A stretch of DNA of 32,000 bases, taken from positions 60,001 to 92,000 of the forward strand of contig JAEOSH010000001.1 of assembly GCA_016840465.1 (NCBI GenBank). Reading direction: 5' to 3'. The translations under genes were made by a program, and so were the position numbers. Positions 3,151 to 28,839 of this stretch are shown here, in pieces; the first letter of the stretch is position 1, and each line of letters begins with the position of its first letter. The notes beneath the pieces were generated by a model. That model saw only the letters and a list, made by a program, of their open reading frames with translations. It was not told the origin of the DNA and searched no databases. This DNA is from Candidatus Baldrarchaeum yapensis (GTDB lineage: Archaea > Asgardarchaeota > Baldrarchaeia > Baldrarchaeales > Baldrarchaeaceae).

Positions 3151-3579
3151 TTATTGTTGGCTTGTACTTTCATCTGGGAAGAGCGGCCCCAATTTTATTA
3201 TCTGTTCTGTGAATTCCTTCACTACTTGTGAAAATTTGAGTCCCTCTGAGGCCGATACCCATTCCAGCCTCAGTCTTTCGGGCTCTATCCCTATCGCCTT
3301 AAGTAGTTTTTTTAATTTCTTGATCCTTCTCTCAGCTATTAGATTTCCTTCAACGTAATGGCAATCTCCAGGATGACATCCACATATTAGCACGCCGTCT
3401 GCGCCGTTTTCGAACGCTTTTAGCACGAAGATCGGGTCTACTCTTCCACTGCACATTACTCTAATTATTCTAATTGTGGGAGGATATTGGAATCGGCTAA
3501 TCCCAGCCAAGTCCGCACCGCCATATCCACACCAATTACAACAAAAAGCTAAAATCCGTGGAAATTTCCAATTAGACAA
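3151..3579 (-). CDS. mvhD: MvhD ([2Fe-2S] delta subunit; methyl-viologen-reducing hydrogenase/Hdr adaptor)
   Basis: FCCNWCGYGGADLAG, RVMCSGRVDP, GCHPGDCHY, GIEPERLRLEWVSASEG. Overlaps the hdrA-like stop by 8 nt. Confidence 0.96.
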   Translation of the reverse strand: MSNWKFPRILAFCCNWCGYGGADLAGISRFQYPPTIRIIRVMCSGRVDPIFVLKAFENGADGVLICGCHPGDCHYVEGNLIAERRIKKLKKLLKAIGIEPERLRLEWVSASEGLKFSQVVKEFTEQIIKLGPLFPDESTSQQ

Positions 3580-6500
3580 TTACCTCACCCCTTAGTGCTG
3601 TATTAACCATTGCAAGGATTTGTTCATTCGTGAAGTGACGCGGTATTATTGCGCCGACCGGGCATGCGGCCTCACATGCCCCACAGCCCATGCATAAGAC
3701 GTTTACTACGTGTGCTTTTCTGATAGTTATCTCGAAGCCCTTCATTTTCTTCGTTATTGTCTTCATTTCGATAGCGCCAGCGGGACATACCGCGGCACAT
3801 CTACCACATCCAATACATTTGTCTTCGTCAACAACAGATGTTATACCTTCCACAATAACGTATCCTCTTGATAGCAATATTCCTGCTTTTGCAGCCGCAC
3901 CAAGTCCTTGCGCTATGGCCTCATCAGCGCTCTTTGGATAGTGTATTGCGCCACAGAGGTATATTCCTTCACTCATGAACTCCAATGGCCTGAGTTTCGG
4001 ATGTGCCTCGAGGAAGAAGCCATTCGCATCTCTAGGGACTTTAAGCATTTGAGCCAGTTCGAAGGCGTCTTCTTCTGGCACTATTGGCGTGGACAAACAT
4101 ACCCTGTCGGCTGGGATTTCGATATATTCTCTTAATAGTGAGTCGTATACGCGCACCTTTAGCTTTCCGTTGAACTTTCTAACTTCTGGTGGTTTGTCTT
4201 CGGGGAATCTTATGAATTTAACGCCATATTTTGTCTGCGCGTCCTTATACAGTTCCTCGTAGCCTTTTGCGAACATCCTAATATCTCGATAAAGTATTAC
4301 GACTTCACAATTCTTATACTCTGACTTTACGATAACTGCGTTCTTTATAGCGTTCATGCAGCAGATTCTTCCGCAGTATGTGCGTCCCTCGGGCTCTCTC
4401 GCTCCTACACACAGAATCATGACTATTGTTTCTCCGTCCTTTATTTTGCGTTCTTTCAACAGCTTCTCAAACTCGAGCATTGTATGCACGTTTTCGAGTT
4501 CTCCATAGCCGTAGTAACCATAAGGTTTGAATTCCTTTCCTCCTATTGCTGTAATTATCGCGCCTACGTTCAACTCTTCCTCCTTTCCATCATGTTGAAC
4601 TTTCACCGTGTAATTTCCGGGATATCCCTTTATTTCCTTGACAACTGTTGAAGTCATGACTTTGACTCTTTCATTTTCGTTTATCGCCTTGATGAGTGGA
4701 TCTAGGATTTCCTTCGGATCTTTAAATCCCGGGTAGAGTTTATATAACTCATTTAATATTCCACCAAGTTTACCCGTCTTCTCGACGAGTATCGCCTCGA
4801 ATCCTTGTTCTGCAACATTTAATGCTGCCGTCATTCCGGCAACTCCGCCACCTATTACCAATACCTTCTTAATTACCGGAACTTTTTCTCTCTTCTGGGG
4901 ATTCAGCAATATTGCTTTTGCTACGGCCATTCTTATCAGGTCCTTCGCCTTTTCGGTTGCTTCTTTAGGCTCGCGCATATGGACCCATGAGCACTGCTCT
5001 CTTATGTTTGCAAATTCGAATAAGTAACGGTTTAAGCCAGCCTCCTCGCAAGTTTCTTGGAACAACGGTTCATGTGTTCTGGGCGTGCAGGCTGCCACGA
5101 CCACTCTATTCAACTTTTCCTGCTGTATTATTTCCTTCATCTTTGTGAGAGAATCCTGAGAGCACATGAATGTGTGATGGGATGCATGTACTACATATGG
5201 CAATTTCGCGGCATACTGCGTTACTTCCTCAACATCGATAACGCTTGCTATGTTACCACCGCAGTGACATACGAAGACCCCTATCCGTGGAGGCTCTCCG
5301 CTCACGTCTCTTTCCGGAGGCAGTACCTTTTCACGTCGCTTTAACGCTGCTACTTTTAAGAGAGATGCGACAATTCCAGCTGCAGCACTTCCCTGAGCGA
5401 CGCTATCCGGTATGTCCTTAGGTCCCTGCGCAACCCCTGTAATGTAAATTCCAGGTTTGATGGTTTTTACCATGTGGAATGGGTCCGCCTCCTTGAAGTA
5501 ACCGTATTCGTCGAGTTCTATTCCCAGTATTTCTGCGAGTTTTTTCGTGCCTTCTGATGGGACTAGTCCTATCGCTAAAACCACCAAATCGACTTCCATT
5601 TCCTTTATCTCGCCCGTTTCGGTATCCTCATATCTAACGATTGGATTGTGGTTTTCGGGGTTTTCGAGTATTTCTGCAACTCTTGCACGTATATATTTGG
5701 TGCCATACTCGTCTCTTGCTCTTCTATAGAATTCTTCGAACATTTTTCCATATGCTCTTAAATCCATGTAGAAGATGTAGCATTCGGTATCCGGCCAGTG
5801 GTCCTTTATCAATATCGTATGTTTTGTCGAGTACATGCAACAAACTCTACTACAGAACATGTTTCCTGTTTTTTCGTCACGCGATCCAACACACTGTATG
5901 AACGCTATCCTCTTGGGGTGCTTCCCATCGGACGGCCTGACAACCTCACCGCCTGTGGGTCCAGATGCCGATAACAGTCTTTCGAGTTCCAAACTCGTTA
6001 TTACATTCGGGTATTTTCCATAACCGTACTCAGGACGGCCTGAGGGATCAAAGGGGTCGAAACCTGTTGCAACAATTATTGCGCCGACGGATATTTCTAT
6101 TTCTTCGGGTTTTTGATTAAAGTTTATCGCCTGCAGTTCGCATGCTTTTTCACACAGTCTGCACTTTATACAATGGTCCATGTCAATTGTGTAGATTGTT
6201 GGAACGGCTTGCGGAAACGGTATGTATATCGCCTTGCGCATCCCCAACCTTTGGTCAAACTCATTTGGTACGTGAACCGGACAGACTTGGGCACACATTC
6301 CGCAACCGTTACATTTCTCTTCGTCGACATAGCGCGGTTTCTTTAGGATTTTTACCTTGAAGTTTCCTGCCTCGCCCTCTACCGATATGACTTCGGAATA
6401 CGCGAGTATCTTTATGTTGGGATGTCTATACGCCTGTACCATCTTAGGAGCGAGGATACACATTGAGCAGTCGAGAGTCGGGAATGTTTTGTCCAGTTGG

Positions 6501-6661
6501 GCCATGTGACCTCCTATTGTGGGAGTTCTCTCAACCAGATACACGTAAAATCCCATATCCGCAAGATCCAGGGCCGCTTGAATACCGGTCACGCCACCTC
6601 CTATTATTAACACGCACTCATGTGGTTTTAGTTCCTCACCCACCTTTCTCACCTCATTCAT
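3572..6661 (-). CDS. hdrA: Large HdrA-like flavoprotein with two FAD modules and rearranged domain order
   Basis: 1029 aa. Order: FAD module 1 ([18 protein letters not shown], two inserted ferredoxin motifs, CVGSR, CSRVCC); HdrA N-terminal domain (CHCGGN, ACTPRTH, REQCSWVH); FAD module 2 (IGGGVAG, CVGAR, CGRICC); C-terminal CIGCGRCAAVCP and CMGCGACEAACP. Confidence 0.93.
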   Translation of the reverse strand: MNEVRKVGEELKPHECVLIIGGGVTGIQAALDLADMGFYVYLVERTPTIGGHMAQLDKTFPTLDCSMCILAPKMVQAYRHPNIKILAYSEVISVEGEAGNFKVKILKKPRYVDEEKCNGCGMCAQVCPVHVPNEFDQRLGMRKAIYIPFPQAVPTIYTIDMDHCIKCRLCEKACELQAINFNQKPEEIEISVGAIIVATGFDPFDPSGRPEYGYGKYPNVITSLELERLLSASGPTGGEVVRPSDGKHPKRIAFIQCVGSRDEKTGNMFCSRVCCMYSTKHTILIKDHWPDTECYIFYMDLRAYGKMFEEFYRRARDEYGTKYIRARVAEILENPENHNPIVRYEDTETGEIKEMEVDLVVLAIGLVPSEGTKKLAEILGIELDEYGYFKEADPFHMVKTIKPGIYITGVAQGPKDIPDSVAQGSAAAGIVASLLKVAALKRREKVLPPERDVSGEPPRIGVFVCHCGGNIASVIDVEEVTQYAAKLPYVVHASHHTFMCSQDSLTKMKEIIQQEKLNRVVVAACTPRTHEPLFQETCEEAGLNRYLFEFANIREQCSWVHMREPKEATEKAKDLIRMAVAKAILLNPQKREKVPVIKKVLVIGGGVAGMTAALNVAEQGFEAILVEKTGKLGGILNELYKLYPGFKDPKEILDPLIKAINENERVKVMTSTVVKEIKGYPGNYTVKVQHDGKEEELNVGAIITAIGGKEFKPYGYYGYGELENVHTMLEFEKLLKERKIKDGETIVMILCVGAREPEGRTYCGRICCMNAIKNAVIVKSEYKNCEVVILYRDIRMFAKGYEELYKDAQTKYGVKFIRFPEDKPPEVRKFNGKLKVRVYDSLLREYIEIPADRVCLSTPIVPEEDAFELAQMLKVPRDANGFFLEAHPKLRPLEFMSEGIYLCGAIHYPKSADEAIAQGLGAAAKAGILLSRGYVIVEGITSVVDEDKCIGCGRCAAVCPAGAIEMKTITKKMKGFEITIRKAHVVNVLCMGCGACEAACPVGAIIPRHFTNEQILAMVNTALRGEVIV

Positions 6662-7821
6662 ATCAAATTGAGAGCCTTTGCCACTAAAACTGTTAAGTCC
6701 ATGATCTCTATGGCGATCTGTGGTTTCTCGAGGAGCCTTTCACTTTTAAGACAGGAAAAGTGCGTCTCACACTTCGGACATGTAGTTACTAGAATGCTTG
6801 CCCCTGTAGCCTCCGCCTCTGCAATTCTATCGGATCTTATAACCTTCGCAATTTCGTCGCATGAGAGCCACGCGCTTGTGCCGCAACATAAGGCGTTTTC
6901 TCGTGACCTTTCCATCTCGATAAGTTCTATACCGGGTATATGTTTTAAAACCTCTCGGGGAGCGTCATAGATCCCCATATGTCTGCCTAGGCGGCAGGGG
7001 TCATGATACGTGACCTTGCGTTTAAACTCTCGTGGGAATGTAAGAGTCCCACTGTTAAGCGCGTCGAGGAGAAATTCGGAGATATGTAAGATCTCGAAAT
7101 CGAATCCGTCTAGAATTCGCGGGTAGTCGACCTTTAGCGTTCTATAGCACTCAGCACACGGAACTATTATCTTCTTCACACCAGCATCCTTGAAGATCCT
7201 TAAATTGTATTCGGCAAGTTTTTGTGCAGTCTCGAAATCTCCAGCCCATAGTAGGTCATGTCCACAGCATTTCTCATCGTCTAGGACAACAGGGGTTATT
7301 CCCAAGTGATTTAGTATCAAAACAGCGCTTTGTGGTATTACTGTTGTATTGACATCTATCTCTTCTAGCATTAGTTCATATATCGGCGTACATCCGATAA
7401 ATAGCGCTATATCTCCCTTTTTGGCGATTTTTACTCCTTCTGGAAGCCACAATTTTGTTTTGTTTGGTCTTATATTGGGGCGTGCCATTAGACGTGCTGA
7501 AACATGGAACAAACACTTATGCGCAACATGTTCTTCATATTTATCATGATGAAGTTTCCTAAGCTCTCTAATGACCTCACTAAACTTTATTCCCGCCCGA
7601 CATACAACGGAACAGGCGTCACATGTGAGACATCTCCAAATACCTTCTCTTAGGAAATATCCCTCACCGGTCACGAAAAGCTCGTGTGCGAATCTTCGCG
7701 GGGAGAAGTCCGTTAAGTAGTTGATCGGACATACGCCGGAACATCTGCCACATTCGAGGCACAGGTAGAGGCTCTTTAGTATTTCGCTCTCGCTCTCTGA
7801 GACCAGCGTAGCGGTTGTCAT
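6658..7821 (-). CDS. HdrD/GlpC-like Fe-S oxidoreductase (2x[4Fe-4S] + two CCG domains)
   Basis: CLECGRCSGVCP, CLTCDACSVVC, GCTP...EKCCG...CAECY, YHDPCRLGR...LCCG...TCPKC. ATGA overlap with the hdrA-like gene. Confidence 0.88.
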   Translation of the reverse strand: MTTATLVSESESEILKSLYLCLECGRCSGVCPINYLTDFSPRRFAHELFVTGEGYFLREGIWRCLTCDACSVVCRAGIKFSEVIRELRKLHHDKYEEHVAHKCLFHVSARLMARPNIRPNKTKLWLPEGVKIAKKGDIALFIGCTPIYELMLEEIDVNTTVIPQSAVLILNHLGITPVVLDDEKCCGHDLLWAGDFETAQKLAEYNLRIFKDAGVKKIIVPCAECYRTLKVDYPRILDGFDFEILHISEFLLDALNSGTLTFPREFKRKVTYHDPCRLGRHMGIYDAPREVLKHIPGIELIEMERSRENALCCGTSAWLSCDEIAKVIRSDRIAEAEATGASILVTTCPKCETHFSCLKSERLLEKPQIAIEIMDLTVLVAKALNLI

Positions 7822-11627: not shown

Positions 11628-11933
11628 ATGAGAAGGTAATTGGCGGGATTGTTGATAGTCCGTAATACTTTCAGTGATCTCCCACTCCCCGTCACTTTCA
11701 ATCCCTTTCTTGTGATAATGATTCCGTTCGGCCGTACTATTCCAGTTATTTGATCTTCCTCGTTTTCTCCAGCAATGCTTTATGATCTTTGATAGGACTT
11801 ATGAAAAACAAGCGGATCACCCTCGAATTCTGAGTACAATACTATGTTGCATATTGGGTTAATACCCTTCAATTTACATCACTGATGCGTATATAGGGCA
11901 TGATTTAGCAGTGTGGCGGAGGATTAGAGGTAA

Positions 11934-12197
11934 ATGAAACCAATCGACGTATTCACATCAAAAGATTGCCCGAAGTGTGAGATTCTAAAGAAGTTCCTTA
12001 CAGATAAGGGTATACAATTCAGAGAGAGGAGAATCGATGATCCGGAGAACATGACAGATGCCATCATGCTTGATATTTACACCGTTCCGGCGATGGTCAA
12101 AGGTTCAAGAGTGTTAAGGACGGAGGAGATGTTTTCGGGAAGTTCTTTGAGAGAAGACGTAGTTTTAAGGTTCATTTTTGGTGATGGAGATGAGTAA
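11934..12197 (+). CDS. nrdH: Glutaredoxin/thioredoxin-like NrdH redoxin
   Basis: FTSKDCPKC active site and cis-Pro motif TVP. Overlaps the nrdD start. Confidence 0.85.
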   Translation: MKPIDVFTSKDCPKCEILKKFLTDKGIQFRERRIDDPENMTDAIMLDIYTVPAMVKGSRVLRTEEMFSGSSLREDVVLRFIFGDGDE

Positions 12198-14418
12198 TAA
12201 CGGTAATGGCGTCAAGAGATGGATTTCAGCAGTTAAGCAGAAATCGGGAAAAATACTGGTGAGAACCACCGACGGGTTAATGGAGCCGTGGAAACGAGAG
12301 AAGATAGTTCGTTCCCTCATGAAAGAGACAAAACTTGCTGAGGAACTCTTCGGCGTTCCTCCCATAACTAGGGAAGAGGCCGAAAGGATTGCCAAGATTG
12401 CTGAGCAGAGATTGCTGGAGATGAATTTGCCCTTTGTAAGTGCGCCATTAATCAGAGAACTTGTTAACATAATTCTCCTAGAGGAAAGTAAACGTAATCC
12501 TAGGTTTGCAGTTTATCGTAACGTCATGACACGTGTGGGAAGACCGCTATATGACGTTTGGGAAACTATGTGGAATAGAGGATATGAAGTGCGTGAGAAT
12601 GCAAATCTTCAGCCAAATCCTGAAACATCTCACAAGAAAATTGCAGATATGACTACAAAAGAAGCTGCATTATTAATATTGCCACCACATCTTGCAGATG
12701 CGCATCTCAGAGGAGATTTGCACATTCATGACCTCGAATATTTCGTCACTCGCCCATTTTGTCAAGACTACGATCTAAGGTTCTTCTATTACTATGGTTT
12801 AAGATGTGATGGTAGCGGACTCCAGACAGCGGCAGCAGGGCCGGCCAAGCACCCTGAGGTTGCAATATTGCATGCTGTAAAGGTGCTTGCTGCAGGACAG
12901 ACGAATTGTGCGGGTGGGCAGGGACTTGCTTACTTTAATGTCTTGATAGCACCATATCTGGAGGGAATCGATGAGGATAGAATGTCACAACTCGCGCAGA
13001 TGCTGTTATTTGAGACAAATGAGACATACGTTTCCAGAGGTGGACAATTAGTTTTCAGTAGCATCCAGATAGAGGCAAAAGTTCCGAAAATTTGGAGAGA
13101 TAGGCCTGTTGTTTTTAGAGGTAAGGTATGGAAAGATTTAACGTACGGAGACTTCGAGGAAGAAGTCAGAATGTTTGCAATTGCGCTTCTGAGAGAATAC
13201 ATGAAAGGAGATTGGTATAATAAGCAGTTTAGTTTTCCGAAGCCCGAAGTTCGCCTGAGATCCGAATATTTCCATGATCCTGAAGCCCGCGAGGTAATAG
13301 ATCTTGCAGTACAGCTCTCAGCAAAGTTCGGATCAACGTATTACGACAATTTAATTCCGCCTTATCGTGACGAAGATGGTGTTGACTGCTACCAGTGTTG
13401 CGCATTTTCCTTCAGGGAGCCTCCAGAGAAGGTGGAGAGGATTCTTAATTTTGAGGATGGAGCGCATTTCAGCATGGGAGGATTACAAGTTGTAACGATA
13501 AATCTTCCTAGAATAGCGTATAGAGCAAATGGAGATGATGACAGGTTCTTCGAGATATTGAGAGAAGTTATGGAAATGGCAAAAGAGATCCTGCTCATAA
13601 AGAGGAGATTGATATTAAAGCAGGCAGAAATGGGGAATTTGCCTTTCCTCACGCAGTCCTTTAATGGAGGACCGCCACTTGTTGATTTGAGAGAATCTGT
13701 ACCAATAATAGGTTTTGTTGGCATGAATGAAACCGTGCAGTATCATACAGGCTTTGAACTTCACGAGAGTAACGATGCTGTCAGGTTTGGTGTTAGAGTG
13801 CTGATTGAGATGGATAGAATTAGGGACGAATTTGAGAAGGAAACAGGTATAAGGTTCGCCATAGCAAGAACCCCGGCCGAGTCCACTGCACAACGTTTAG
13901 CAATTCTAGATTTGATTCATTACAGGGACCAAGCGATTCAGGTCGTAAAGGGAGATCTAAGTGATTGGCAAAGAAAGTTAGAGTTGTATGGTAGAACGGA
14001 GGTGCCTGTGTACTACACTAACGGTTTCATGGTCAGGTATGATGCTCCCATAAGTTTGGCGAAGAAAATCGCTATAGAGCAGAAAGCCTTCCCGATACTA
14101 TCCGGTGGGAACATCTTTCACGTGTTCTTAGGGGAGGCGCATCCGGACCCGGAGGCTCTATTCTCGTTGACGGAGAAAATTGCTACAAGAACAATGATCG
14201 GCTATTGGAGCTATACGAAGGACCTCACTTTATGTAACGAGTGCAAGAAGACCTCTTATGGCTTATTAGACAAGTGCCCCTACTGTCACTCAAGGAATGT
14301 TGAATGGTTTAGTAGAATAACTGGCTACTATCAGCGAGTTAAAGCATGGAATGCCGCAAAACGCGATGAACTCATGAGAAGATACAGACTGAGTGGTGAA
14401 AAGCTGTACTTCATCTGA
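12178..14418 (+). CDS. nrdD: Anaerobic (class III) ribonucleoside-triphosphate reductase with N-terminal ATP cone
   Basis: ATP cone (VRTTDG..EPWKREKI...SAPLIRELVN), HLRGDLHIHDL, PFCQ, AGGQG, YQCC, VTINLPRIA, TPAES, YYTNG, Zn ribbon CNEC/CPYC, glycyl-radical loop SRITGYY (Gly at 14323-14325). Likely start ATG 12190. Confidence 0.97.
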   Translation: MVMEMSNNGNGVKRWISAVKQKSGKILVRTTDGLMEPWKREKIVRSLMKETKLAEELFGVPPITREEAERIAKIAEQRLLEMNLPFVSAPLIRELVNIILLEESKRNPRFAVYRNVMTRVGRPLYDVWETMWNRGYEVRENANLQPNPETSHKKIADMTTKEAALLILPPHLADAHLRGDLHIHDLEYFVTRPFCQDYDLRFFYYYGLRCDGSGLQTAAAGPAKHPEVAILHAVKVLAAGQTNCAGGQGLAYFNVLIAPYLEGIDEDRMSQLAQMLLFETNETYVSRGGQLVFSSIQIEAKVPKIWRDRPVVFRGKVWKDLTYGDFEEEVRMFAIALLREYMKGDWYNKQFSFPKPEVRLRSEYFHDPEAREVIDLAVQLSAKFGSTYYDNLIPPYRDEDGVDCYQCCAFSFREPPEKVERILNFEDGAHFSMGGLQVVTINLPRIAYRANGDDDRFFEILREVMEMAKEILLIKRRLILKQAEMGNLPFLTQSFNGGPPLVDLRESVPIIGFVGMNETVQYHTGFELHESNDAVRFGVRVLIEMDRIRDEFEKETGIRFAIARTPAESTAQRLAILDLIHYRDQAIQVVKGDLSDWQRKLELYGRTEVPVYYTNGFMVRYDAPISLAKKIAIEQKAFPILSGGNIFHVFLGEAHPDPEALFSLTEKIATRTMIGYWSYTKDLTLCNECKKTSYGLLDKCPYCHSRNVEWFSRITGYYQRVKAWNAAKRDELMRRYRLSGEKLYFI

Positions 14419-14462
14419 ACCACATATTATTTTGTAATCAGCAACAACCAGTAAACTTTGAT

Positions 14463-14573
14463 TTAGGCTATTCTTAGTATTCTTGTTGAAGCTAAAGTTT
14501 CATACTCTGATACGGATGTTTCTTTCGTGATGCGTGATATCGAAAAATTATAATTACATGACAAAAATCTCAT
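14463..14573 (-). other. 36-codon ORF coupled by TAATG to the NrdD-like gene; possible detached or frameshifted C-terminal tail
   Basis: MRFLSCNYNFSISRITKETSVSEYETLASTRILRIA. Its ATG shares the last A of the upstream TAA. Contains SRIT-K where NrdD has SRIT-G. Confidence 0.35.
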
Positions 14574-16702
14574 TATTTATTTGTGAAGGAGAATGCGCCG
14601 ATCTTGTGTATCAGCATTGTTTTTATGCATTCAATTAAGTTTTCAACGGATAGAGATTGTATCCTTAAGTTTAATGGAAGCAGATAACCTCCCTTGAAAA
14701 TTCTTTGTGCTTCCGAGACGAGTCTTAAATATTCCGAATCCAAGAAGCCTATGTTGTTCGGAAGTACACCTGTCGAATATGTGTAGAACACACCTGAACC
14801 CTGCTTAAACAATTGACGCTTTCTATCTATTTCTGCAAAACGTTTTGCCACCTCCACGCATGTCGTCACCATCAATCTTGTATTAGATAGATGGCTCTCA
14901 GCAGTTTCCTGTTTTCGCTCTGTGATCTCGCTTGATGTTTCCCTAATGACCTCCTCTAGTCCCAGTAACAGACGACGCACGAACTCTTTATTTTCAATAA
15001 TACCCTCATTTGTCAACACACGAACGACTTCTGGAATTCCTATCGGAGCAACACCCAGCAATGCGTTATTTAATTCAAAGTACCTGCGTTTCTCTTTTCC
15101 GTTGCTATGTAGATTTGTTCCAAGGAGGCGCAGAATGCCACTGCTAAGCAACTCCTTTACGTATTTCACTTTTGCACTTAAGATTTCGAGCGACTTCTCA
15201 AATAAGCTTTTTATTTTCTCGAAAAACATCGACTCATCTCCCGATGACTCGTAAGCCGCTCTTAGCAGATTTACCGCAACCCATCCTACGCAGCCAGTCC
15301 CTACCGTTTTTAGAGGATCGCTAGGATCGTGTAAGCGCTCACCATCGACGCAGTAATTTGTGTTTGGTTGTTGCCACTCGGGTGATAAGTTCGTGAAGAT
15401 AATATCACAATTATAGTTCAGCATGAACTCTAAGGCGTTGCTTAGGAGGACAGCCGTCTCCTCGTTGTTTAAAGAGTTAGCTCTAAGTTTCACAGATATT
15501 ATGATGTTCTCAGCGGGGCCTACCTTTCTAAAGACCCGCTTCAAGGATGAAAATACCGATTTAAATATTTGTAACGCTTGAGTCTCGTAATCTCCATATA
15601 CGCCATCTTCAATCTTTGGAAACCCTACATTTGGTACTTCTCTTTTGGCGAGAACTTCCGGAACTTTCATTTCTAAATATATAACAACCTTCTTCGATTT
15701 ACTCATGCTTGTGTGGACAAGGAAAAACAAACGGTAGAGCAGATCTTCGATTTCCTTAACATTCATGTTCCGGACGAAAGGGGCTAGAAAAACATTAAAG
15801 AAGTCGATTCCTTGGGCACGTGATATTTCTTCCTCGGTTCTTTTTAACACCGTATAGAGATATAATGGTAAATCCTTTACATCATCGGGAAATTTATACG
15901 TGAGACTCTGTCTCAAAGTATTCCAAGAGAGGAGAATTTGAAGATTATGCTGAAAACTTAAGGGAGCGAGAACCCAATCTGAGAGGTATGGAATAAAGAT
16001 CTCCCCGGATAGATGAGCATCAGCTACTTCCCGTGGTAAGACGTTAAGGAGAAGATACTGCTCAAATATCGAGGAGCCTGCGGTTGTTTTTAGAGCCACC
16101 GGGCTAGAGTTCCGAGAACTTTTCGACTTCTCAATAAGTTGTGTTACATCATATACCGGTAACCCTAAACGTGTTAGCGCATGTCTGTATTCTTCGAACC
16201 CTTTTTCCAACAATATTGCATTAACAAATTCTCTTATTAGTGGTGCAGTTAGATATTTTATCTTCGATTTAAGTATGCGTTCTTCCGCCTCACGAGAGAT
16301 CTCATCGGCCATTTTTGGCGGCATCCCGGCTTCTCTGATCAGAGACATCGTTATTTTATTTCTATCGAACTTTTCCATTTCATACCCAGAAGTCCTTACA
16401 AAAATCCCATCTATGAACTCTTTGCTTGCATCTTCTAACATTAGCAATATTTCGGCGACCTTTTCTCCGAGCCTTGTAAGCCTATATCTTCCGCTTTCCT
16501 TGTCATGATCGACAATTCGAGCCTCTTTTAGTTGATTTATATGGTAGGATATTTTACCAGCCGATTCTCTCGGCGATAACCCGAGAAGTTCGATAATTTC
16601 GGTAAAGGATAACACGCTCTTCTTACTAAGGATTTTTATCATATCTATCCTTATTGGGCTCGAGAGAACCGATAGCAGTTTTTTAAAAAGATTTTCTTTC
16701 AT
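14573..16702 (-). CDS. ArsR-like winged HTH + ATP cone + degenerate class III RNR (NrdD-like) barrel fusion
   Basis: N-terminal wHTH (LSSPIRIDMIKIL...SFTEI...SYHINQL...YRLTRLG), then ATP cone (VRTSGYEMEKFDRNKI...TAPLIREFVN), then blocks collinear with NrdD (ADAHLSGEI, QGIDFFNVFLAPF, VAVNLLRAAYESSGDE..FFE, GGYLL). Lacks the PFC cysteine, YQCC, Zn ribbon and RITG. The track start is GTG 16711; ATG 16702 follows an AGGTG RBS. Confidence 0.88.
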   Translation of the reverse strand: MKENLFKKLLSVLSSPIRIDMIKILSKKSVLSFTEIIELLGLSPRESAGKISYHINQLKEARIVDHDKESGRYRLTRLGEKVAEILLMLEDASKEFIDGIFVRTSGYEMEKFDRNKITMSLIREAGMPPKMADEISREAEERILKSKIKYLTAPLIREFVNAILLEKGFEEYRHALTRLGLPVYDVTQLIEKSKSSRNSSPVALKTTAGSSIFEQYLLLNVLPREVADAHLSGEIFIPYLSDWVLAPLSFQHNLQILLSWNTLRQSLTYKFPDDVKDLPLYLYTVLKRTEEEISRAQGIDFFNVFLAPFVRNMNVKEIEDLLYRLFFLVHTSMSKSKKVVIYLEMKVPEVLAKREVPNVGFPKIEDGVYGDYETQALQIFKSVFSSLKRVFRKVGPAENIIISVKLRANSLNNEETAVLLSNALEFMLNYNCDIIFTNLSPEWQQPNTNYCVDGERLHDPSDPLKTVGTGCVGWVAVNLLRAAYESSGDESMFFEKIKSLFEKSLEILSAKVKYVKELLSSGILRLLGTNLHSNGKEKRRYFELNNALLGVAPIGIPEVVRVLTNEGIIENKEFVRRLLLGLEEVIRETSSEITERKQETAESHLSNTRLMVTTCVEVAKRFAEIDRKRQLFKQGSGVFYTYSTGVLPNNIGFLDSEYLRLVSEAQRIFKGGYLLPLNLRIQSLSVENLIECIKTMLIHKIGAFSFTNK

Positions 16703-16711
16703 TTTGCACAC

Positions 16712-17692
<981 letters not shown>

Positions 17693-17696
17693 TCAT

Positions 17697-18203
17697 ATGC
17701 TGGTGATGGCAATGAGCATCGGAAAGTCACAGTCTTACGATGAAGAACTGCGTGTTCGAAAGATAAGGGAGGGTACTGTTATAGATCATATAACTGCCGG
17801 AAGCGCGTTAACAGTTCTGAGGATTCTGGGGATTTCGGGCAAAGAGGGGAACGTTATAAGTATTGTGATGAATGTCCCAAGCAAGAAACTCGGAAAAAAA
17901 GACATTGTCAAAATAGAAGGTCGTGAACTGAATTCTAAGGAGGTTGCAATGATAGCTCTCATAGCCCCTCGTGCGACGATCAATATAATCAGGAATTACA
18001 AGGTTGTACATAAGGAGCGTGTTAGACTTCCGCCTGAGATTAGGGATATTATCAGGTGCATCAACCCAAATTGTATTACAAATAGTGAGAGGGAGCCTGT
18101 CCAACCACTTTTTAAAGTTTTAAGTGACAATCCTCTCAAGTTAAGATGCCAGTACTGCTCAATAATATTGACACAAGAGGACGTTGAGAGGCAGTTGGGA
18201 TAG
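17697..18203 (+). CDS. pyrI: Aspartate carbamoyltransferase regulatory subunit
   Basis: [41 protein letters not shown], Zn ligands CINPNCIT and CQYC. Start may be 17712. Confidence 0.97.
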
Positions 18204-24634: not shown

Positions 24635-26740
24635 TTGGTAGTGGCAACTTCAATACGTAGAACTAAGGACACTATTTTGGGAAGAGACTGTACTACTCGC
24701 ATCGTAACTCTAATGGTCGCAATCCTCGCTGTACTGCTTGTCGCTCAACTTATTTTCGGCAATCTTTTAGGAACCTCCTTTCCGTGCGAATGTGTATGTG
24801 CTACCTCCACGGGCCAAATCGTTTATAGAGGAGATACTGTTCTTTTAACTGCACATTTAGAAGACGAGAACGGAAATCCTGTGCCTAATGCGACAATAGA
24901 ATTTTTCGATGAAACAAATAACGTTTTTTTGGGATCTAACATCACGGATACCAATGGAGTTGCAATTTTTGAATGGAAAATCCCTCTTAATTATCCCCTC
25001 GGAGAGACTGTCATAAATGCTACATTTAGAGGAGATGTAAAGAGAAACCTAGCACCATCAGTGGAAAGGGTTGCCTTAGAGATCCATGGGCACCTGTCCC
25101 TATATGTTAAGACTTATGATACGACGGGGGACCCCTATGATAGGAACATTGCACCTGGAGACAAAGTATATTTCATCATCAAGTTAGAGGACGAAAATGG
25201 CCTTCCCCTTAAAGGTTTTCTGGTAAATTTGCTCGATAACGAGGGAAACGTTATTTCATCAGGATTTTCTAATGACAGCGGGCTTGTTTGCTTAGATTCG
25301 GGCGTAATTACAAGCACCGGAGAATTTACTTTTCATATAAACGTTCCTTCTCAAAATTATTTCACAAATGCGTCTGTTATTGTTAAAATAAGGTCTGACA
25401 AGATAAGAACTAATATTCTGATAGAAGAACACGCTTTAACCACATATAGGGGAGACAACATTACCATTTGTGGGATACTAGAAGACGAATACCGCAAGCC
25501 TCTCAGTAACATGCCTATATATTTGGAGGATCGATACGGTAATGACATTTGTTATTGCATGACAGACTCCTCTGGAGCCTTCTGCTTTTGTGTAAACATA
25601 CCTAGGCGTGCAAATATTGGACTCTATGTTTTTACAGTCACCTTTCCAGGAACTCAAAGATATCGGTCCGCTTCGGCCAATGTTAGCATTAAGGTCAAGG
25701 GGCTTTCTAAAATGAACGTTAAAAACGCGTCATTTATCGTGCTTACAAATGATCTTACCACAATTATCGTATCTTTGATGGATGAAAATGGATGCCCTAT
25801 ATCCTCTGCGAATGTGACCGCTTATAATTTAAATACCTCAGAAGTTCTCTCGTCAGGAATTACTGATAGTTATGGTGTCACAACTCTTACTTTCGTATCA
25901 CCCTCGAGCTGCGGGATTTATAATATTTCGGTGATGTTTTGTGGCAACGACTTCTACAATGGGACTAAGGAGTACGTCCAACTTCTCGTTTTGGAAAGAA
26001 CGATGTTGCAAGTAGCGATAGACAATAATGCGACTTATTTCCTCCGCGGAGATCTTGTAACCTTTTCCGTGAAACTAATGGACTCGCAAGGAAGACCTCT
26101 GGCCAACGAGACGCTGGTTGTGATAACATCTGCAAGTACTACTGATATCATGTGTAACAAGACCGATAATTATGGAATTGCGAGATTTAGATATAAAATT
26201 CCGGATAGTGCGTCAATGGGACAATTGATATTTAAAGTAGTATATGAAGGGAATATCGAGAGACTTCTAGGCGGATCAGAGACCTATTTCCATGTAAATA
26301 TCGTCGAAAAACTTCCGACAAATATATCTGTTGAAATAATGCCTCTAGATGATGGCGATATCCTCCTTAAGATTAGATTATACATTTTAGACGGGAGGCC
26401 CGTATCTAATGCTAATATTAGCATTTTTGCCGGGAATGCTTTCCTATATAACTTAACGACCAGCGACGATGGTTCGGCAGTTTTTACAATCAAAAAGGAT
26501 GATTTAAACAAGTATACCCGAATTAGAATAATATTCTATGGTTCCGACATATTGAATGATTGCTCACTTGAAGTGGACTTAACTAATTTTACTCATAACA
26601 TCAGCACAACGAAGTCTTCAGAGGGACTTTCAATAAACTATATAATTTACTATGCCAGACCAGTGATCATTTCAGCATGTTGCGTCGCTATAGTTTACAC
26701 TTTGAAAAGGCTGAGAAGATCCGAGTTATTTAGAATATGA
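24635..26740 (+). CDS. Surface protein with six Ig-like (Big-type) repeats, N-terminal signal/TM and C-terminal TM anchor
   Basis: Six units of about 100 aa with consensus (R)GD.V.....L.DE.G.P..N..(V/I)......TD..G.......IP....G......F.G...Y. Hydrophobic N-terminus (ATG 24713 possible). C-terminal YARPVIISACCVAIVYTL followed by KRLRR. Confidence 0.85.
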   Translation: MVVATSIRRTKDTILGRDCTTRIVTLMVAILAVLLVAQLIFGNLLGTSFPCECVCATSTGQIVYRGDTVLLTAHLEDENGNPVPNATIEFFDETNNVFLGSNITDTNGVAIFEWKIPLNYPLGETVINATFRGDVKRNLAPSVERVALEIHGHLSLYVKTYDTTGDPYDRNIAPGDKVYFIIKLEDENGLPLKGFLVNLLDNEGNVISSGFSNDSGLVCLDSGVITSTGEFTFHINVPSQNYFTNASVIVKIRSDKIRTNILIEEHALTTYRGDNITICGILEDEYRKPLSNMPIYLEDRYGNDICYCMTDSSGAFCFCVNIPRRANIGLYVFTVTFPGTQRYRSASANVSIKVKGLSKMNVKNASFIVLTNDLTTIIVSLMDENGCPISSANVTAYNLNTSEVLSSGITDSYGVTTLTFVSPSSCGIYNISVMFCGNDFYNGTKEYVQLLVLERTMLQVAIDNNATYFLRGDLVTFSVKLMDSQGRPLANETLVVITSASTTDIMCNKTDNYGIARFRYKIPDSASMGQLIFKVVYEGNIERLLGGSETYFHVNIVEKLPTNISVEIMPLDDGDILLKIRLYILDGRPVSNANISIFAGNAFLYNLTTSDDGSAVFTIKKDDLNKYTRIRIIFYGSDILNDCSLEVDLTNFTHNISTTKSSEGLSINYIIYYARPVIISACCVAIVYTLKRLRRSELFRI

Positions 26741-26750
26741 GGGGCTTTAA

Positions 26751-28241
26751 ATGCGAATTCTGAATTTTATAACTCAATATAAAACTCTTTTAAGGATTGG
26801 TGAGCGCTTTCTGTATAGCAGAGACAAAGCCCTTAAACATTACATAAAATTCTCGAAGGGACTTGACATAGAGGTTTATGGATTTCTCTTATTTGCGGTG
26901 CTTATATTGTCATTCGGCATCACAACTGAATTGTTGCTCTTTTTGCTAAAACTGCAGATCCTTAATTGCATACTCGTGTCATTGCTTATCGCGGTGATTG
27001 CAATACACCTCTTAAGGGACATTTTCTTTAAAGAAGGCCATCACACTCGAGTGATAATGAATGAATTGGCACCAGTGATCTACTTACGATATAGAATTGG
27101 ACAGCGTCTAAACGAGGACATTATTGATATTTTAAGAGAGTTTGCACGATTTGAAGATCGCGCCATTAGAAAATATTTTGAGTCGATATTAAAGCAGGTG
27201 TTGCGAGGATCACTTCCCGAAAATGCTATAATTGATCATCTAAAATATTGCCCGTCGGAGGATATGAAAAGAGTATTAACGTTGATAGTAAGCGAGAATC
27301 ACAGAAGTTCCGTGGAGACTCTCGAAGTTGAGAAGATAATAGAGTTTTCTACATTCAAATTTGAGATCATGTATTTACTTAAGTCTTTAGAGTCAAGGTT
27401 GACGATTTTACTCGTTTGTTCTAGCTTTTTCCCCATCTTATTTTCTATTTGCCTTCTACTATATCCAGATTTGGTATTTCTCTTTTTGTCAATGTACTTT
27501 TTGGGTTTTTTTGGTCTTAAGTCCTTTCTGACTTATGAGAGCCCACTGCCAAGAGTTAACCCCTTAGAAGAGTTTCGCGAGTTTTCAAACGTCTATGACA
27601 TGATAAATATTGTTTTGAACAACTTTGACGAGAGGTTATCTCCTGAGGCTTTAATTTGCAAAATTTTATCTCAAAGGAAGAAAATGCTCAATTTTGGCGG
27701 TGATATTCTTCGGAAAATTCTACCTTATTACTGTTCACTTAATCCTGTTGAGGATAGAAAATCTGCGATGTTGAACAGCAAGCAATATGCCGAAATGTAC
27801 TTTCTTAACGTCGTGATTGAAATGCTAAGAAAAATAATTTTTGATCTCCCAGAAGGGGCAATAGATCTTCTCTATAATCTCAGGTCTATTGTCTTTTATC
27901 ATATGCAATTTAAACGCGATCTTGCAATTCTTTATAGCTCCTTAAAATTCAAGATAAAGGTGCTTACGTACAGTATGAGCACAGCAAACGCCTTCATTAT
28001 TGCAATCTTATTATCCTTTGCCAAGTTTTCTCCTCCTCTTCTTATTAATACAAACGGTGCAATCGCAGGTGGATTTTTACTCCTTCCAATCGCAGTACTT
28101 GTAACACTGATATCCACACTCATCTCTCTTATAATCCTTAAACATGAGAAGAAGACGAAAGTGATTATCACAACCCTTGTGTTATTTTTGTTGACATTTC
28201 TTGGAGCCCGAACCCTCTTATTGCATGCAAGTTTTCCATGA
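26751..28241 (+). CDS. Polytopic membrane protein, divergent T2SS-F/TadB-TadC/ArlJ-like (tandem architecture)
   Basis: Pattern of 2 TM, cytoplasmic domain, 2 TM, cytoplasmic domain, 3 TM. The first soluble domain has RKYFESILKQVLRGSLPENAI...CPSEDMKRVL, resembling the EF..I...V..G...E.AL.....PS..L.R pattern of T2SS-F proteins. Confidence 0.55.
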   Translation: MRILNFITQYKTLLRIGERFLYSRDKALKHYIKFSKGLDIEVYGFLLFAVLILSFGITTELLLFLLKLQILNCILVSLLIAVIAIHLLRDIFFKEGHHTRVIMNELAPVIYLRYRIGQRLNEDIIDILREFARFEDRAIRKYFESILKQVLRGSLPENAIIDHLKYCPSEDMKRVLTLIVSENHRSSVETLEVEKIIEFSTFKFEIMYLLKSLESRLTILLVCSSFFPILFSICLLLYPDLVFLFLSMYFLGFFGLKSFLTYESPLPRVNPLEEFREFSNVYDMINIVLNNFDERLSPEALICKILSQRKKMLNFGGDILRKILPYYCSLNPVEDRKSAMLNSKQYAEMYFLNVVIEMLRKIIFDLPEGAIDLLYNLRSIVFYHMQFKRDLAILYSSLKFKIKVLTYSMSTANAFIIAILLSFAKFSPPLLINTNGAIAGGFLLLPIAVLVTLISTLISLIILKHEKKTKVIITTLVLFLLTFLGARTLLLHASFP

Positions 28242-28280
28242 GGTCAAGACCACTTGATTGTTAATTATAATAGAACCACG

Positions 28281-28405
28281 TGGCGCCGGGGGCGGGATTC
28301 GAACCCGCGCGGCCTCAGGGGCCACGGGCTTTCCACCCGTGGCATAATTAGCAGGCGTAAGCCCCCTATCGGGATCCGCTCCCTACCAGGCTAGGAGACC
28401 CCGGC
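28281..28405 (-). tRNA. tRNA-Ser(GCT) with two introns (29/30, 19 nt, 28357-28375; 37/38, 18 nt, 28331-28348); CCA encoded
   Basis: Removing both introns gives an 88-nt cloverleaf: GCCGGGG/CCCCGGC-G-CCA, anticodon arm CGGGC-CT-GCT-AA-GCCCG, long variable arm GGCC-CCTGA-GGCC, T arm GCGGG-TTCGAAT-CCCGC. Both introns form BHB-type junctions. Confidence 0.95.
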
Positions 28406-28419
28406 ACCATGTATCTAGT

Positions 28420-28742
28420 GCGGCTGCGGCCCCCTCGGGTGGATCCCTAGCCCCTCAACCGCTCTCTCCACCCGTGGACTCTGTCCCGCACCCCCATGAG
28501 CGCCGAACGTTCGGGGTTAGGTTGCTCCCTCCCGGGCCTGGCCAGGTTCCCCCGATAAAGGTCATCCGGCTCCCGCCTTCACGGGAGCGGTGACCACCGC
28601 CGGCCCCATGGGACGAGACTTCATCGACACGGATGGAGCGCGGCTGGGGGGCGTCGGGACCGCCCCTCGGGTTACTGGCCCCGCCATCAGCGGATTTGCG
28701 GTTACAGGGGACCGCTAGCCCCCCGGCCCTTCCCGCAGCCGC
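28420..28742 (-). ncRNA. ffs: Archaeal SRP (7S) RNA
   Basis: Terminal helix 1 GCGGCTGCGG/CCGCAGCCGC, Alu-domain CCCCTGTAACC (UGUNR), helix 6 GCTCCCG-T-GAAG-G-CGGGAGC (GNAR loop), helix 8 CCAGGCCC-GGGA-GGGAGCAACC. About 323 nt and very GC-rich. Confidence 0.96.
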
Positions 28743-28839
28743 AATATTATAATTGTAATGAACGGCTTATTAGTATTTCGTTAGGCAGTAATTTGTATGG
28801 AAGTATCATGTGTTGGTGGTGTCGTTGTTCTGGCCGTTC

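Follow-up and report, generated by a model that had tools for sequence, protein, structure and literature searches.

A class III ribonucleotide reductase relative without radical residues, fused to a winged helix-turn-helix and an ATP-cone: a candidate nucleotide-sensing regulator in Asgard and other archaea

Most bacteria control the genes of their ribonucleotide reductases (RNRs) with NrdR; for archaea, the control of RNR genes is, to our knowledge, largely unknown. Enzyme folds can be re-used for gene control: in Bacillus, PyrR is homologous to uracil phosphoribosyltransferase, keeps some enzyme activity and controls the pyr operon by binding RNA and attenuating transcription. NrdR itself is a bacterial RNR repressor composed of a zinc ribbon and an ATP-cone (PMC9110341, PMC12176259), and every ATP-cone studied so far binds ATP or dATP (PMC11226230, PMC9110341). 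Here, we analyzed a gene from Candidatus Baldrarchaeum yapensis (GenBank assembly GCA_016840465.1), located in a 32,000-nucleotide stretch of contig JAEOSH010000001.1 (positions 60,001 to 92,000), which we call the window and within which all positions are given. Its product, referred to as dead-NrdD, joins a winged helix-turn-helix (wHTH) and an ATP-cone to a barrel of the class III RNR (NrdD) type. Taking all analyses together, we estimate at roughly 0.6 the probability that dead-NrdD is a non-catalytic class III RNR paralogue acting as a nucleotide-sensing, DNA-binding regulator of pyrimidine and deoxyribonucleoside triphosphate (dNTP) supply.

Like NrdR, dead-NrdD couples an ATP-cone to a DNA-binding module, its gene is linked to RNR genes, its presumed task is adenine nucleotide-dependent control of dNTP supply, and NrdR cones are among the best matches of its own cone. 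Unlike NrdR, it carries a wHTH instead of the zinc ribbon and a dead enzyme body of 520 residues; the homology is confined to the cone, and the family is linked to pyrBI at least as strongly as to nrd genes. With PyrR it would share the re-use of a nucleotide-metabolism enzyme fold as a nucleotide-responsive pyr regulator, whereas PyrR is an RNA binder with some enzyme activity and an unrelated fold. In this comparison, dead-NrdD would represent a kind of ATP-cone-based regulator of nucleotide metabolism in which the DNA-binding head is new and the attached enzyme body is dead. The gene and its modules are the following:

14573-16702, minus strand: dead-NrdD coding sequence, ATG at 16702, 709 amino acids (aa) plus TAA, then an in-frame TGA at 14570-14572
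16418-16702, minus strand: wHTH of the ArsR/DUF7347 type, residues 1-95, ending in a long helix (77-96); from Pfam, the family profile and the AlphaFold2 model
16163-16405, minus strand: ATP-cone, residues about 100-180; from Pfam, a domain-only AlphaFold2 model and conservation
14576-16147, minus strand: NrdD-type alpha/beta barrel without catalytic elements, residues 186-709; from Pfam and Foldseek

The reading frame is uninterrupted. An alternative GTG start would extend it to 14573-16711; the ATG agrees both with the length of a database twin and with the start of the family alignment (709 aa). The protein ends in FSFTNK, followed by the tandem stops TAA and TGA and a T-rich spacer. A fusion of an ArsR-type wHTH, an ATP-cone and an NrdD barrel had been proposed in an earlier reading of the letters alone (below, the sequence-only reading), and each of the three modules was recovered by Pfam above its cut-off and by structural modelling. 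Residues 10-85 matched HTH_5 with 29.7 bits (cut-off 22) and DUF7347 with 31.8 bits (cut-off 27.6), and among solved structures the family profile matched ArsR, CadC and HlyU at E of about 1e-3. The order of elements in the AlphaFold2 model (four helices, two beta strands forming the wing, one helix) and the HTH_5 match within residues 1-95 are as in ArsR/SmtB proteins (PF01022; 6j05, 1u2w, 3jth). In contrast to these, dead-NrdD stays below the cut-off of the metalloregulator subfamily (NF033788, 30.5 bits against 55), and its effector module is the ATP-cone with the barrel; no cysteine was seen in the wHTH helix equivalent to the ArsR metal-site helix.

As for the cone, PF03477 matched residues 102-173 with 30.5 bits (cut-off 25.8). 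A model of this domain only reached a mean predicted local distance difference test (pLDDT) score of 81, and its best 31 structural matches were all ATP-cones, from NrdR, NrdD, NrdB and NrdA, with template modelling (TM) scores of 0.51-0.75 and root-mean-square deviations of 2.3-3.7 Å, in agreement with the cone fold of a beta-hairpin and four helices. The barrel matched Pfam NRDD (PF13597) over residues 201-708 with 108.8-113 bits (cut-off 26.2). This match covers profile positions 9-506 of 562, indicating that a C-terminal part is missing. A phmmer search of the single protein against solved structures gave no match. The full-length AlphaFold2 model, built on 34 family sequences, has a mean pLDDT of 84.7, and in Foldseek its top 36 PDB matches were all class III RNRs (E 4e-21 to 4e-12; TM up to 0.70, normalised to target length), including the NrdDs of P. 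copri (8p23), S. thermophilus (9d3x), T. maritima (4coi) and T4 (1h78). With these enzymes dead-NrdD shares the ATP-cone and the ten-stranded alpha/beta barrel fold of RNRs.

The relationship to catalytic NrdD can be followed within the window itself, where a true NrdD is encoded on the opposite strand. BLASTP aligned the two proteins at 27% identity over 553 columns (E 5e-37), and all motif pairs on which the sequence-only reading had based its block-by-block match were found. The neighbour scored 518 bits on the NrdD equivalog TIGR02487 (cut-off 326) and 480 bits on Pfam NRDD; dead-NrdD reached only 105.4 bits on the former. The same reading had claimed that the protein lost its radical residues, and this was traced through 120 relatives, over which all family residue counts were taken. 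The bottom-face cysteine of the PFC motif is indeed lost, being serine in dead-NrdD and present in 0/120 relatives. The cysteine triad of the finger loop is absent in 120/120, as claimed; the suggested substitution by NYCVDG did not stand, since a 9-residue deletion common to the whole family has removed the triad, and the lone cysteine of NYCVDG is unconserved (any nearby cysteine occurs in 9/120 relatives, at non-equivalent positions). The position of the radical glycine is still glycine in 59/120 relatives, and the tyrosine after it is found in 0/120. Each of the zinc-ribbon cysteines is kept in 116-117 of the 120. The copy studied here, however, has neither zinc ribbon nor glycyl-radical loop (RxxGY) and ends at the last barrel strand, just where the zinc ribbon had been expected to begin; no relic of either was detected downstream of the gene or elsewhere in the genome.

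The losses extend beyond the cysteines. The NxN flap, the RGGQ segment, TPAES, the Asn of YxTN and residues of the Gly loop are at least 90% conserved among 47 catalytic NrdDs and lost in the family. The RGGQ segment is probably loop 2, to judge from where it lies and from the part that Gln309 and Arg305 play (PMC11226230). What the family and the catalytic NrdDs have in common is mainly cone residues plus a few structural barrel motifs; the family keeps ADAHLxG, FNxxLAP and xNLxRxAY, and most of its members keep all four zinc-ribbon cysteines. It differs from NrdD in lacking the bottom-face Cys, the finger-loop tip, the flap, RGGQ and TPAES, in its degenerate Gly loop, and in the added N-terminal wHTH, the TIGR02487 score below cut-off and the separate clade described next. 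The barrel lacks all elements for radical chemistry and for substrate and effector handling, and the dead-NrdD protein cannot be a ribonucleotide reductase. That the barrel runs some non-radical nucleotide reaction instead is very improbable: although the ADAH motif, Asn438, Asn478, Lys511 and Arg621 are invariant in the family and in catalytic NrdDs alike, the known catalytic and substrate-handling elements are gone and variable within the family, the barrel evolves fastest (see below), and an N-terminal wHTH would be unexpected on a metabolic enzyme.

The architecture is not restricted to this locus. The combination of HTH, cone and NRDD recurred in more than 100 archaeal proteins retrieved by a protein search, 33-38% identical and mostly 740-770 aa long, from Asgard lineages, Bathyarchaeia, Methanomethylicia and others, and a scan of one genome per species found a relative in at least 579 species-level archaeal genomes. 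Database entries for many of these proteins bear the name 'anaerobic ribonucleoside-triphosphate reductase'. No NCBIfam model covers the combination of wHTH, ATP-cone and dead NrdD, and in the full-text literature outside subscription journals we found no paper on the architecture and no mention of DUF7347. In a maximum-likelihood tree of 103 rows, restricted to columns homologous to residues 100-709, one branch parts all family rows from all catalytic NrdDs, including the short cone-less types; its support (Shimodaira-Hasegawa-like approximate likelihood-ratio test) was 81, rising to 97 when the long row L114 was left out. As no bacterial outgroup was included, the position of the root is not fixed. 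Dead-NrdD is sister to orthologues of the same order with a support of 99. This order includes metagenome-assembled genomes labelled Baldrarchaeota and Odinarchaeota (one locus, L009, is identical to that of genome G004); the host's own family had no member among the species representatives scanned. The tree and the alignment thus agree with the expectation of the sequence-only reading that orthologues form a conserved clade always devoid of the radical cysteines (120/120), and they mark the family as an old, widespread archaeal clade set apart from catalytic NrdDs.

We estimated omega (dN/dS, the ratio of nonsynonymous to synonymous divergence) by the Nei-Gojobori method among same-order orthologues with unsaturated synonymous divergence (0.57-1.07), separately for each module:

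whole protein: 0.10-0.11
ATP-cone: 0.010-0.015
wHTH: 0.04-0.05
barrel: 0.12-0.13
zinc ribbon and Gly-like tail: 0.13-0.21

The family is under strong purifying selection, which is strongest on the ATP-cone; of two sequence-based signs named beforehand as refuting the regulator, neither a ratio near 1 in this sister clade nor catalytic residues retained by the orthologues is seen. Compared between lineages, the cone is about 70% identical, the wHTH 47% and the barrel 37%. The cone of the copy in the window is 71% identical to same-order orthologues (barrel core 30%) and 58-70% identical to distant relatives (core 29%). The constraint on cone and wHTH, with the old active site left free, favours sensing through the cone. 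The sequence-only reading had also allowed for sensing at retained barrel sites, which is disfavoured by the family-wide loss of the NxN flap, RGGQ, TPAES and the Cys loop. For the copy itself, dN/dS is unmeasurable, as the only close sequence differs at 3 nucleotides and the next relatives are about 40% identical. It keeps all 49 family-invariant residues. Among the columns conserved to at least 90%, it departs in 19 cases, of which 5 correspond to the missing tail, 9 are conservative changes to isoleucine and 5 are non-conservative. We note the isoleucine bias as such: 9 of the 14 non-gap departures replace Leu, Met, Phe, Val or Ala by Ile.

Gene neighbourhoods were compared at the 46 loci whose downstream flank spanned at least 3 kb. 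The gene pyrB was found at 19/46 (usually with pyrI) and catalytic nrdD at 10/46 (often with nrdH), so that either or both occurred at 24/46. This linkage is seen in Asgard archaea, Bathyarchaeia, Culexarchaeia and others, in varied orders and orientations. Unbiased clustering of all neighbours revealed no cross-lineage partner besides pyrB/pyrI and nrdD; the remaining clusters are housekeeping genes reflecting local synteny. A recurrent linkage to pyrBI and nrdHD was what the sequence-only reading had suggested looking for, and its proposal of an archaeal NrdR analogue is in line with the host genome (2.27 Mb, 46% GC, 96% complete), in which no match to TIGR00244, the model for NrdR, was present. 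Besides the catalytic NrdD, the host has a class II RNR, and a NrdG activase is encoded on another contig. Contig C61 of the host genome (G000; 26419-28758) contains a class II/I-type RNR large-subunit match in an open frame of 968 aa; this match falls into two adjacent Pfam segments (profile positions 1-346 and 378-523), a hint that the enzyme contains an insertion. In each of five relatives (G001, G002, G004, G015 and G039; 5/5), one catalytic NrdD and one dead copy were found. The catalytic NrdD of same-order relatives is short (623-639 aa), cone-less and encoded far from the dead gene.

Around dead-NrdD, the window has the following features:

16712-17635, minus strand: pyrB, aspartate carbamoyltransferase (ATCase) catalytic chain
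17636-17696, no strand: divergent intergenic region of 61 bp between pyrB and pyrI-atpF-atpA
17697-18203, plus strand: pyrI (ATCase regulatory chain), then atpF and atpA, divergent from pyrB
11628-11933, plus strand: region of 306 bp upstream of nrdH, candidate regulatory
11934-12197, plus strand: nrdH-like glutaredoxin gene, directly upstream of nrdD
12178-14418, plus strand: catalytic NrdD with ATP-cone, CC finger loop, zinc ribbon and RITGY
14419-14572, no strand: convergent spacer with T-runs past the dead-NrdD stop and no tail relic

The genes for NrdD and dead-NrdD are convergent and 154 bp apart. On the other side, pyrB ends 9 bp before the ATG of dead-NrdD with GGTG in between, which makes co-transcription of the two genes probable. 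In same-order relatives, the order is HTH_3 gene, dead gene, then pyrB in the opposite direction, followed by the divergent pyrI, atpF and atpA; in the window, nrdH and nrdD are followed by the dead gene and pyrB, both on the opposite strand, and then by pyrI, atpF and atpA. The place beside pyrB is kept while the strand is flipped, indicating that the dead-NrdD gene was inverted here. After the inversion the gene has no promoter region of its own, and its tail of about 55 codons is gone; a single rearrangement presumably caused both the inversion and the truncation. Most likely, dead-NrdD is now read together with pyrB from the 61-bp pyrB/pyrI spacer, the only promoter region available to it, and this spacer is a candidate autoregulatory target. 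A second sample contained a twin of the same length and in the same arrangement, with 3 differences in 2130 nucleotides. Protein P0095 and the shorter Asgard proteins of the f9 group have no tail either, representing independent losses in at least two other lineages; a tail-less form can thus persist, and loss of the tail is tolerated. Shorter proteins of 637-712 aa from one Asgard family (L099-L102, from G040, G011, G031 and G021) lack the zinc ribbon and form a long-branched subgroup; they match the dead family over its wHTH and cone and into the first part of its barrel. Genome G011 additionally has a 605-aa NrdD-like open reading frame (L122) that lacks zinc ribbon and Gly loop and groups with the catalytic NrdDs.

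We propose the following model for the action of dead-NrdD. The ATP-cone would bind adenine nucleotides (ATP or dATP), and the binding would shift the conformation or oligomeric state of the protein, as in NrdR and cone-bearing RNRs (PMC9110341, PMC11226230). The shifted state would change the engagement of the wHTH with the promoters of pyrBI and/or nrdHD, with the dead barrel serving mainly as a scaffold. In the window, dead-NrdD would be read from the divergent pyrB/pyrI promoter as part of a pyrB-regulator operon, and should it act on this promoter, it would regulate itself. A wider proposal, which we hold more tentatively and at somewhat less than even odds, is that the family constitutes the missing archaeal counterpart of NrdR, sensing ATP/dATP and co-ordinating de novo pyrimidine synthesis (pyrBI) with ribonucleotide reduction (nrdHD) across Asgard archaea, Bathyarchaeia and Methanomethylicia; the naturally tail-less copy in the pyrB operon would then identify wHTH, cone and bare barrel as the minimal working unit. 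If so, a widespread enzyme-derived regulator would fill the NrdR gap in lineages among which are the archaea closest to eukaryotes, and it would clearly exemplify the conversion of a radical enzyme into a sensor. A common misannotation would also be corrected, as the reductase labels would inflate the anaerobic dNTP synthesis inferred for these archaea. The copy in the window is a natural deletion experiment in which the zinc ribbon and the glycyl-loop relic proved dispensable, and it also hints at a direct tie to the expression of pyrB. New here are the selection figures for the single modules, the finding that flap and RGGQ are lost, and the inverted tail-less variant joined to the pyrB operon.

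Several observations weigh against dead-NrdD being such a regulator. In the cone of P. copri NrdD, the nucleotide is contacted by Lys7, Arg8, Arg87 and Arg91 (PMC11226230). By hand alignment only, Arg103, Arg173 and Arg178 of dead-NrdD are family-invariant and Thr104 replaces the second basic residue, so Arg-Thr stands in place of the canonical Lys-Arg pair, both here and in the catalytic NrdD of the same genome; moreover, the family cone profile matched no solved ATP-cone by sequence. Both make the ligand uncertain. About half of the loci with enough flanking sequence have neither pyrB nor nrdD nearby. No operator common to the nrdH upstream and pyrB/pyrI regions was found. Finally, the copy in the window retains 98 of the 117 columns conserved to at least 90% (84%), the lowest value among 34 members, and its terminal branch of 1.19 is the longest of the clade (median 0.1; 0.11 for the neighbouring NrdD), from which it follows that constraint was partly relaxed in this lineage.

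The alternative that fares best, unlikely as we consider it, is a DNA-binding protein with another task, general or linked to replication for example, in which the cone and barrel have a structural role or respond to another signal. It would account for the loci without a pyr or nrd neighbour and for the housekeeping genes (NAC, PAN, HMG-CoA synthase) next to the dead gene in Methanomethylicia and many Bathyarchaeia, and it would suit the uncertain nucleotide-binding residues of the cone. However, pyrB/pyrI and nrdD are the only genes that recur across lineages and gene orders, and the extreme constraint on the cone fits a ligand-sensing module, in keeping with the ATP/dATP binding of studied ATP-cones (PMC11226230, PMC9110341).

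Somewhat less probable still is a regulator acting at the protein level: the dead barrel would modulate the activity of a partner to which it binds, either catalytic NrdD or some other nucleotide enzyme (ATCase, for instance), and the wHTH would be secondary. NrdD works as a dimer, the barrel is homologous to it, in every relative checked the genome encodes a single catalytic NrdD and a single dead copy, and in the window the two genes are neighbours. Nevertheless, the catalytic NrdD of the same-order relatives is of a different, cone-less type encoded far off, and the family split from catalytic NrdDs long ago (25-30% identity). A pure protein-protein role would not explain the constraint on the wHTH (omega 0.04) either, the barrel being the least conserved of the folded modules. 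A homodimer prediction for two copies of the barrel (residues 210-709) scored 0.00; it gives no verdict and was not counted either way.

We rate slightly lower again the view that the copy is a decaying remnant confined to this lineage, truncated, fast-evolving and carried behind pyrB after the rearrangement with little or no function. The long end branch, the reduced retention of conserved columns and the loss of a tail kept by 116-117/120 relatives are consistent with it, as are the Pfam NRDD score of 113 bits, compared with 214-270 for the dead copies of relatives, and the loss of its own promoter region through the inversion. On the other hand, the frame of 709 codons is intact with a clean end and has the same length in the second sample; all invariant residues and a 71% identical cone are kept, the AlphaFold2 model is confident, and GGTG precedes the ATG. 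The tail, besides, shows the weakest constraint of all parts in the sister clade, and other lineages lost it independently. On balance, we prefer a nucleotide-sensing, DNA-binding regulator.

The search for operators of such a regulator yielded a few weak leads. The sequence ATACCCTTCAATTTACA lies at 11862-11878, just upstream of a TATA-like box in the nrdH upstream region. The 10-mer CGGAGGATTA occurs both at 11917-11926, just upstream of the nrdH ATG, and at 17655-17664 in the pyrB/pyrI spacer (chance expectation about 0.04), overlapping a GGAGG ribosome-binding-like site. In Bathyarchaeia, the nrdH-nrdD promoters downstream of the dead gene share a conserved block, ATACAGAATTTTATACC and variants, which precedes an A/T-rich TATA-like box by about 8 nucleotides and may have a regulatory role; it was located at these positions:

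L064:8358-8374
L079:8327-8343
L081:2580-2596
L048:5305-5321

A relaxed form of this block has one match in the nrdH upstream region of the window, but 6 in the whole 32 kb. The divergent pyrB/pyrI spacers of Bathyarchaeia (L025, L047, L050, L069, L072, L078, L085 and L088) share another, TAGATAACTCTTTT-like block, which may be a promoter element or an operator. The two blocks are mutually unrelated, neither was clearly present upstream of dead genes, and both may simply be promoter elements. No lead was strong enough for an operator to be called.

Two observations concern the remainder of the window. On the minus strand, 3151-7821 encodes a 1029-aa HdrA-like flavoprotein with ferredoxin domains, a CCG-domain HdrB/C-like protein and an MvhD/FlpD protein, adjoining formylmethanofuran dehydrogenase-like genes and mch. 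No McrA was found in the host genome, and the cluster with mch accordingly points to a Wood-Ljungdahl methyl branch without methanogenesis. As for the nrdH-nrdD pair, the base-composition profile gave no sign of foreign origin for nrdHD or for the dead-gene region. The closest relative of the pair (NrdD 77-79% identical) is at L089:9726-12160, on a 30-kb metagenome contig that encodes both a phage-type integrase and a family-B DNA polymerase; many of its genes have no Pfam family, and the contig may be a virus or mobile element. Considering this relative together with the short cone-less NrdD that same-order relatives encode elsewhere, the host NrdD may have been acquired by transfer.

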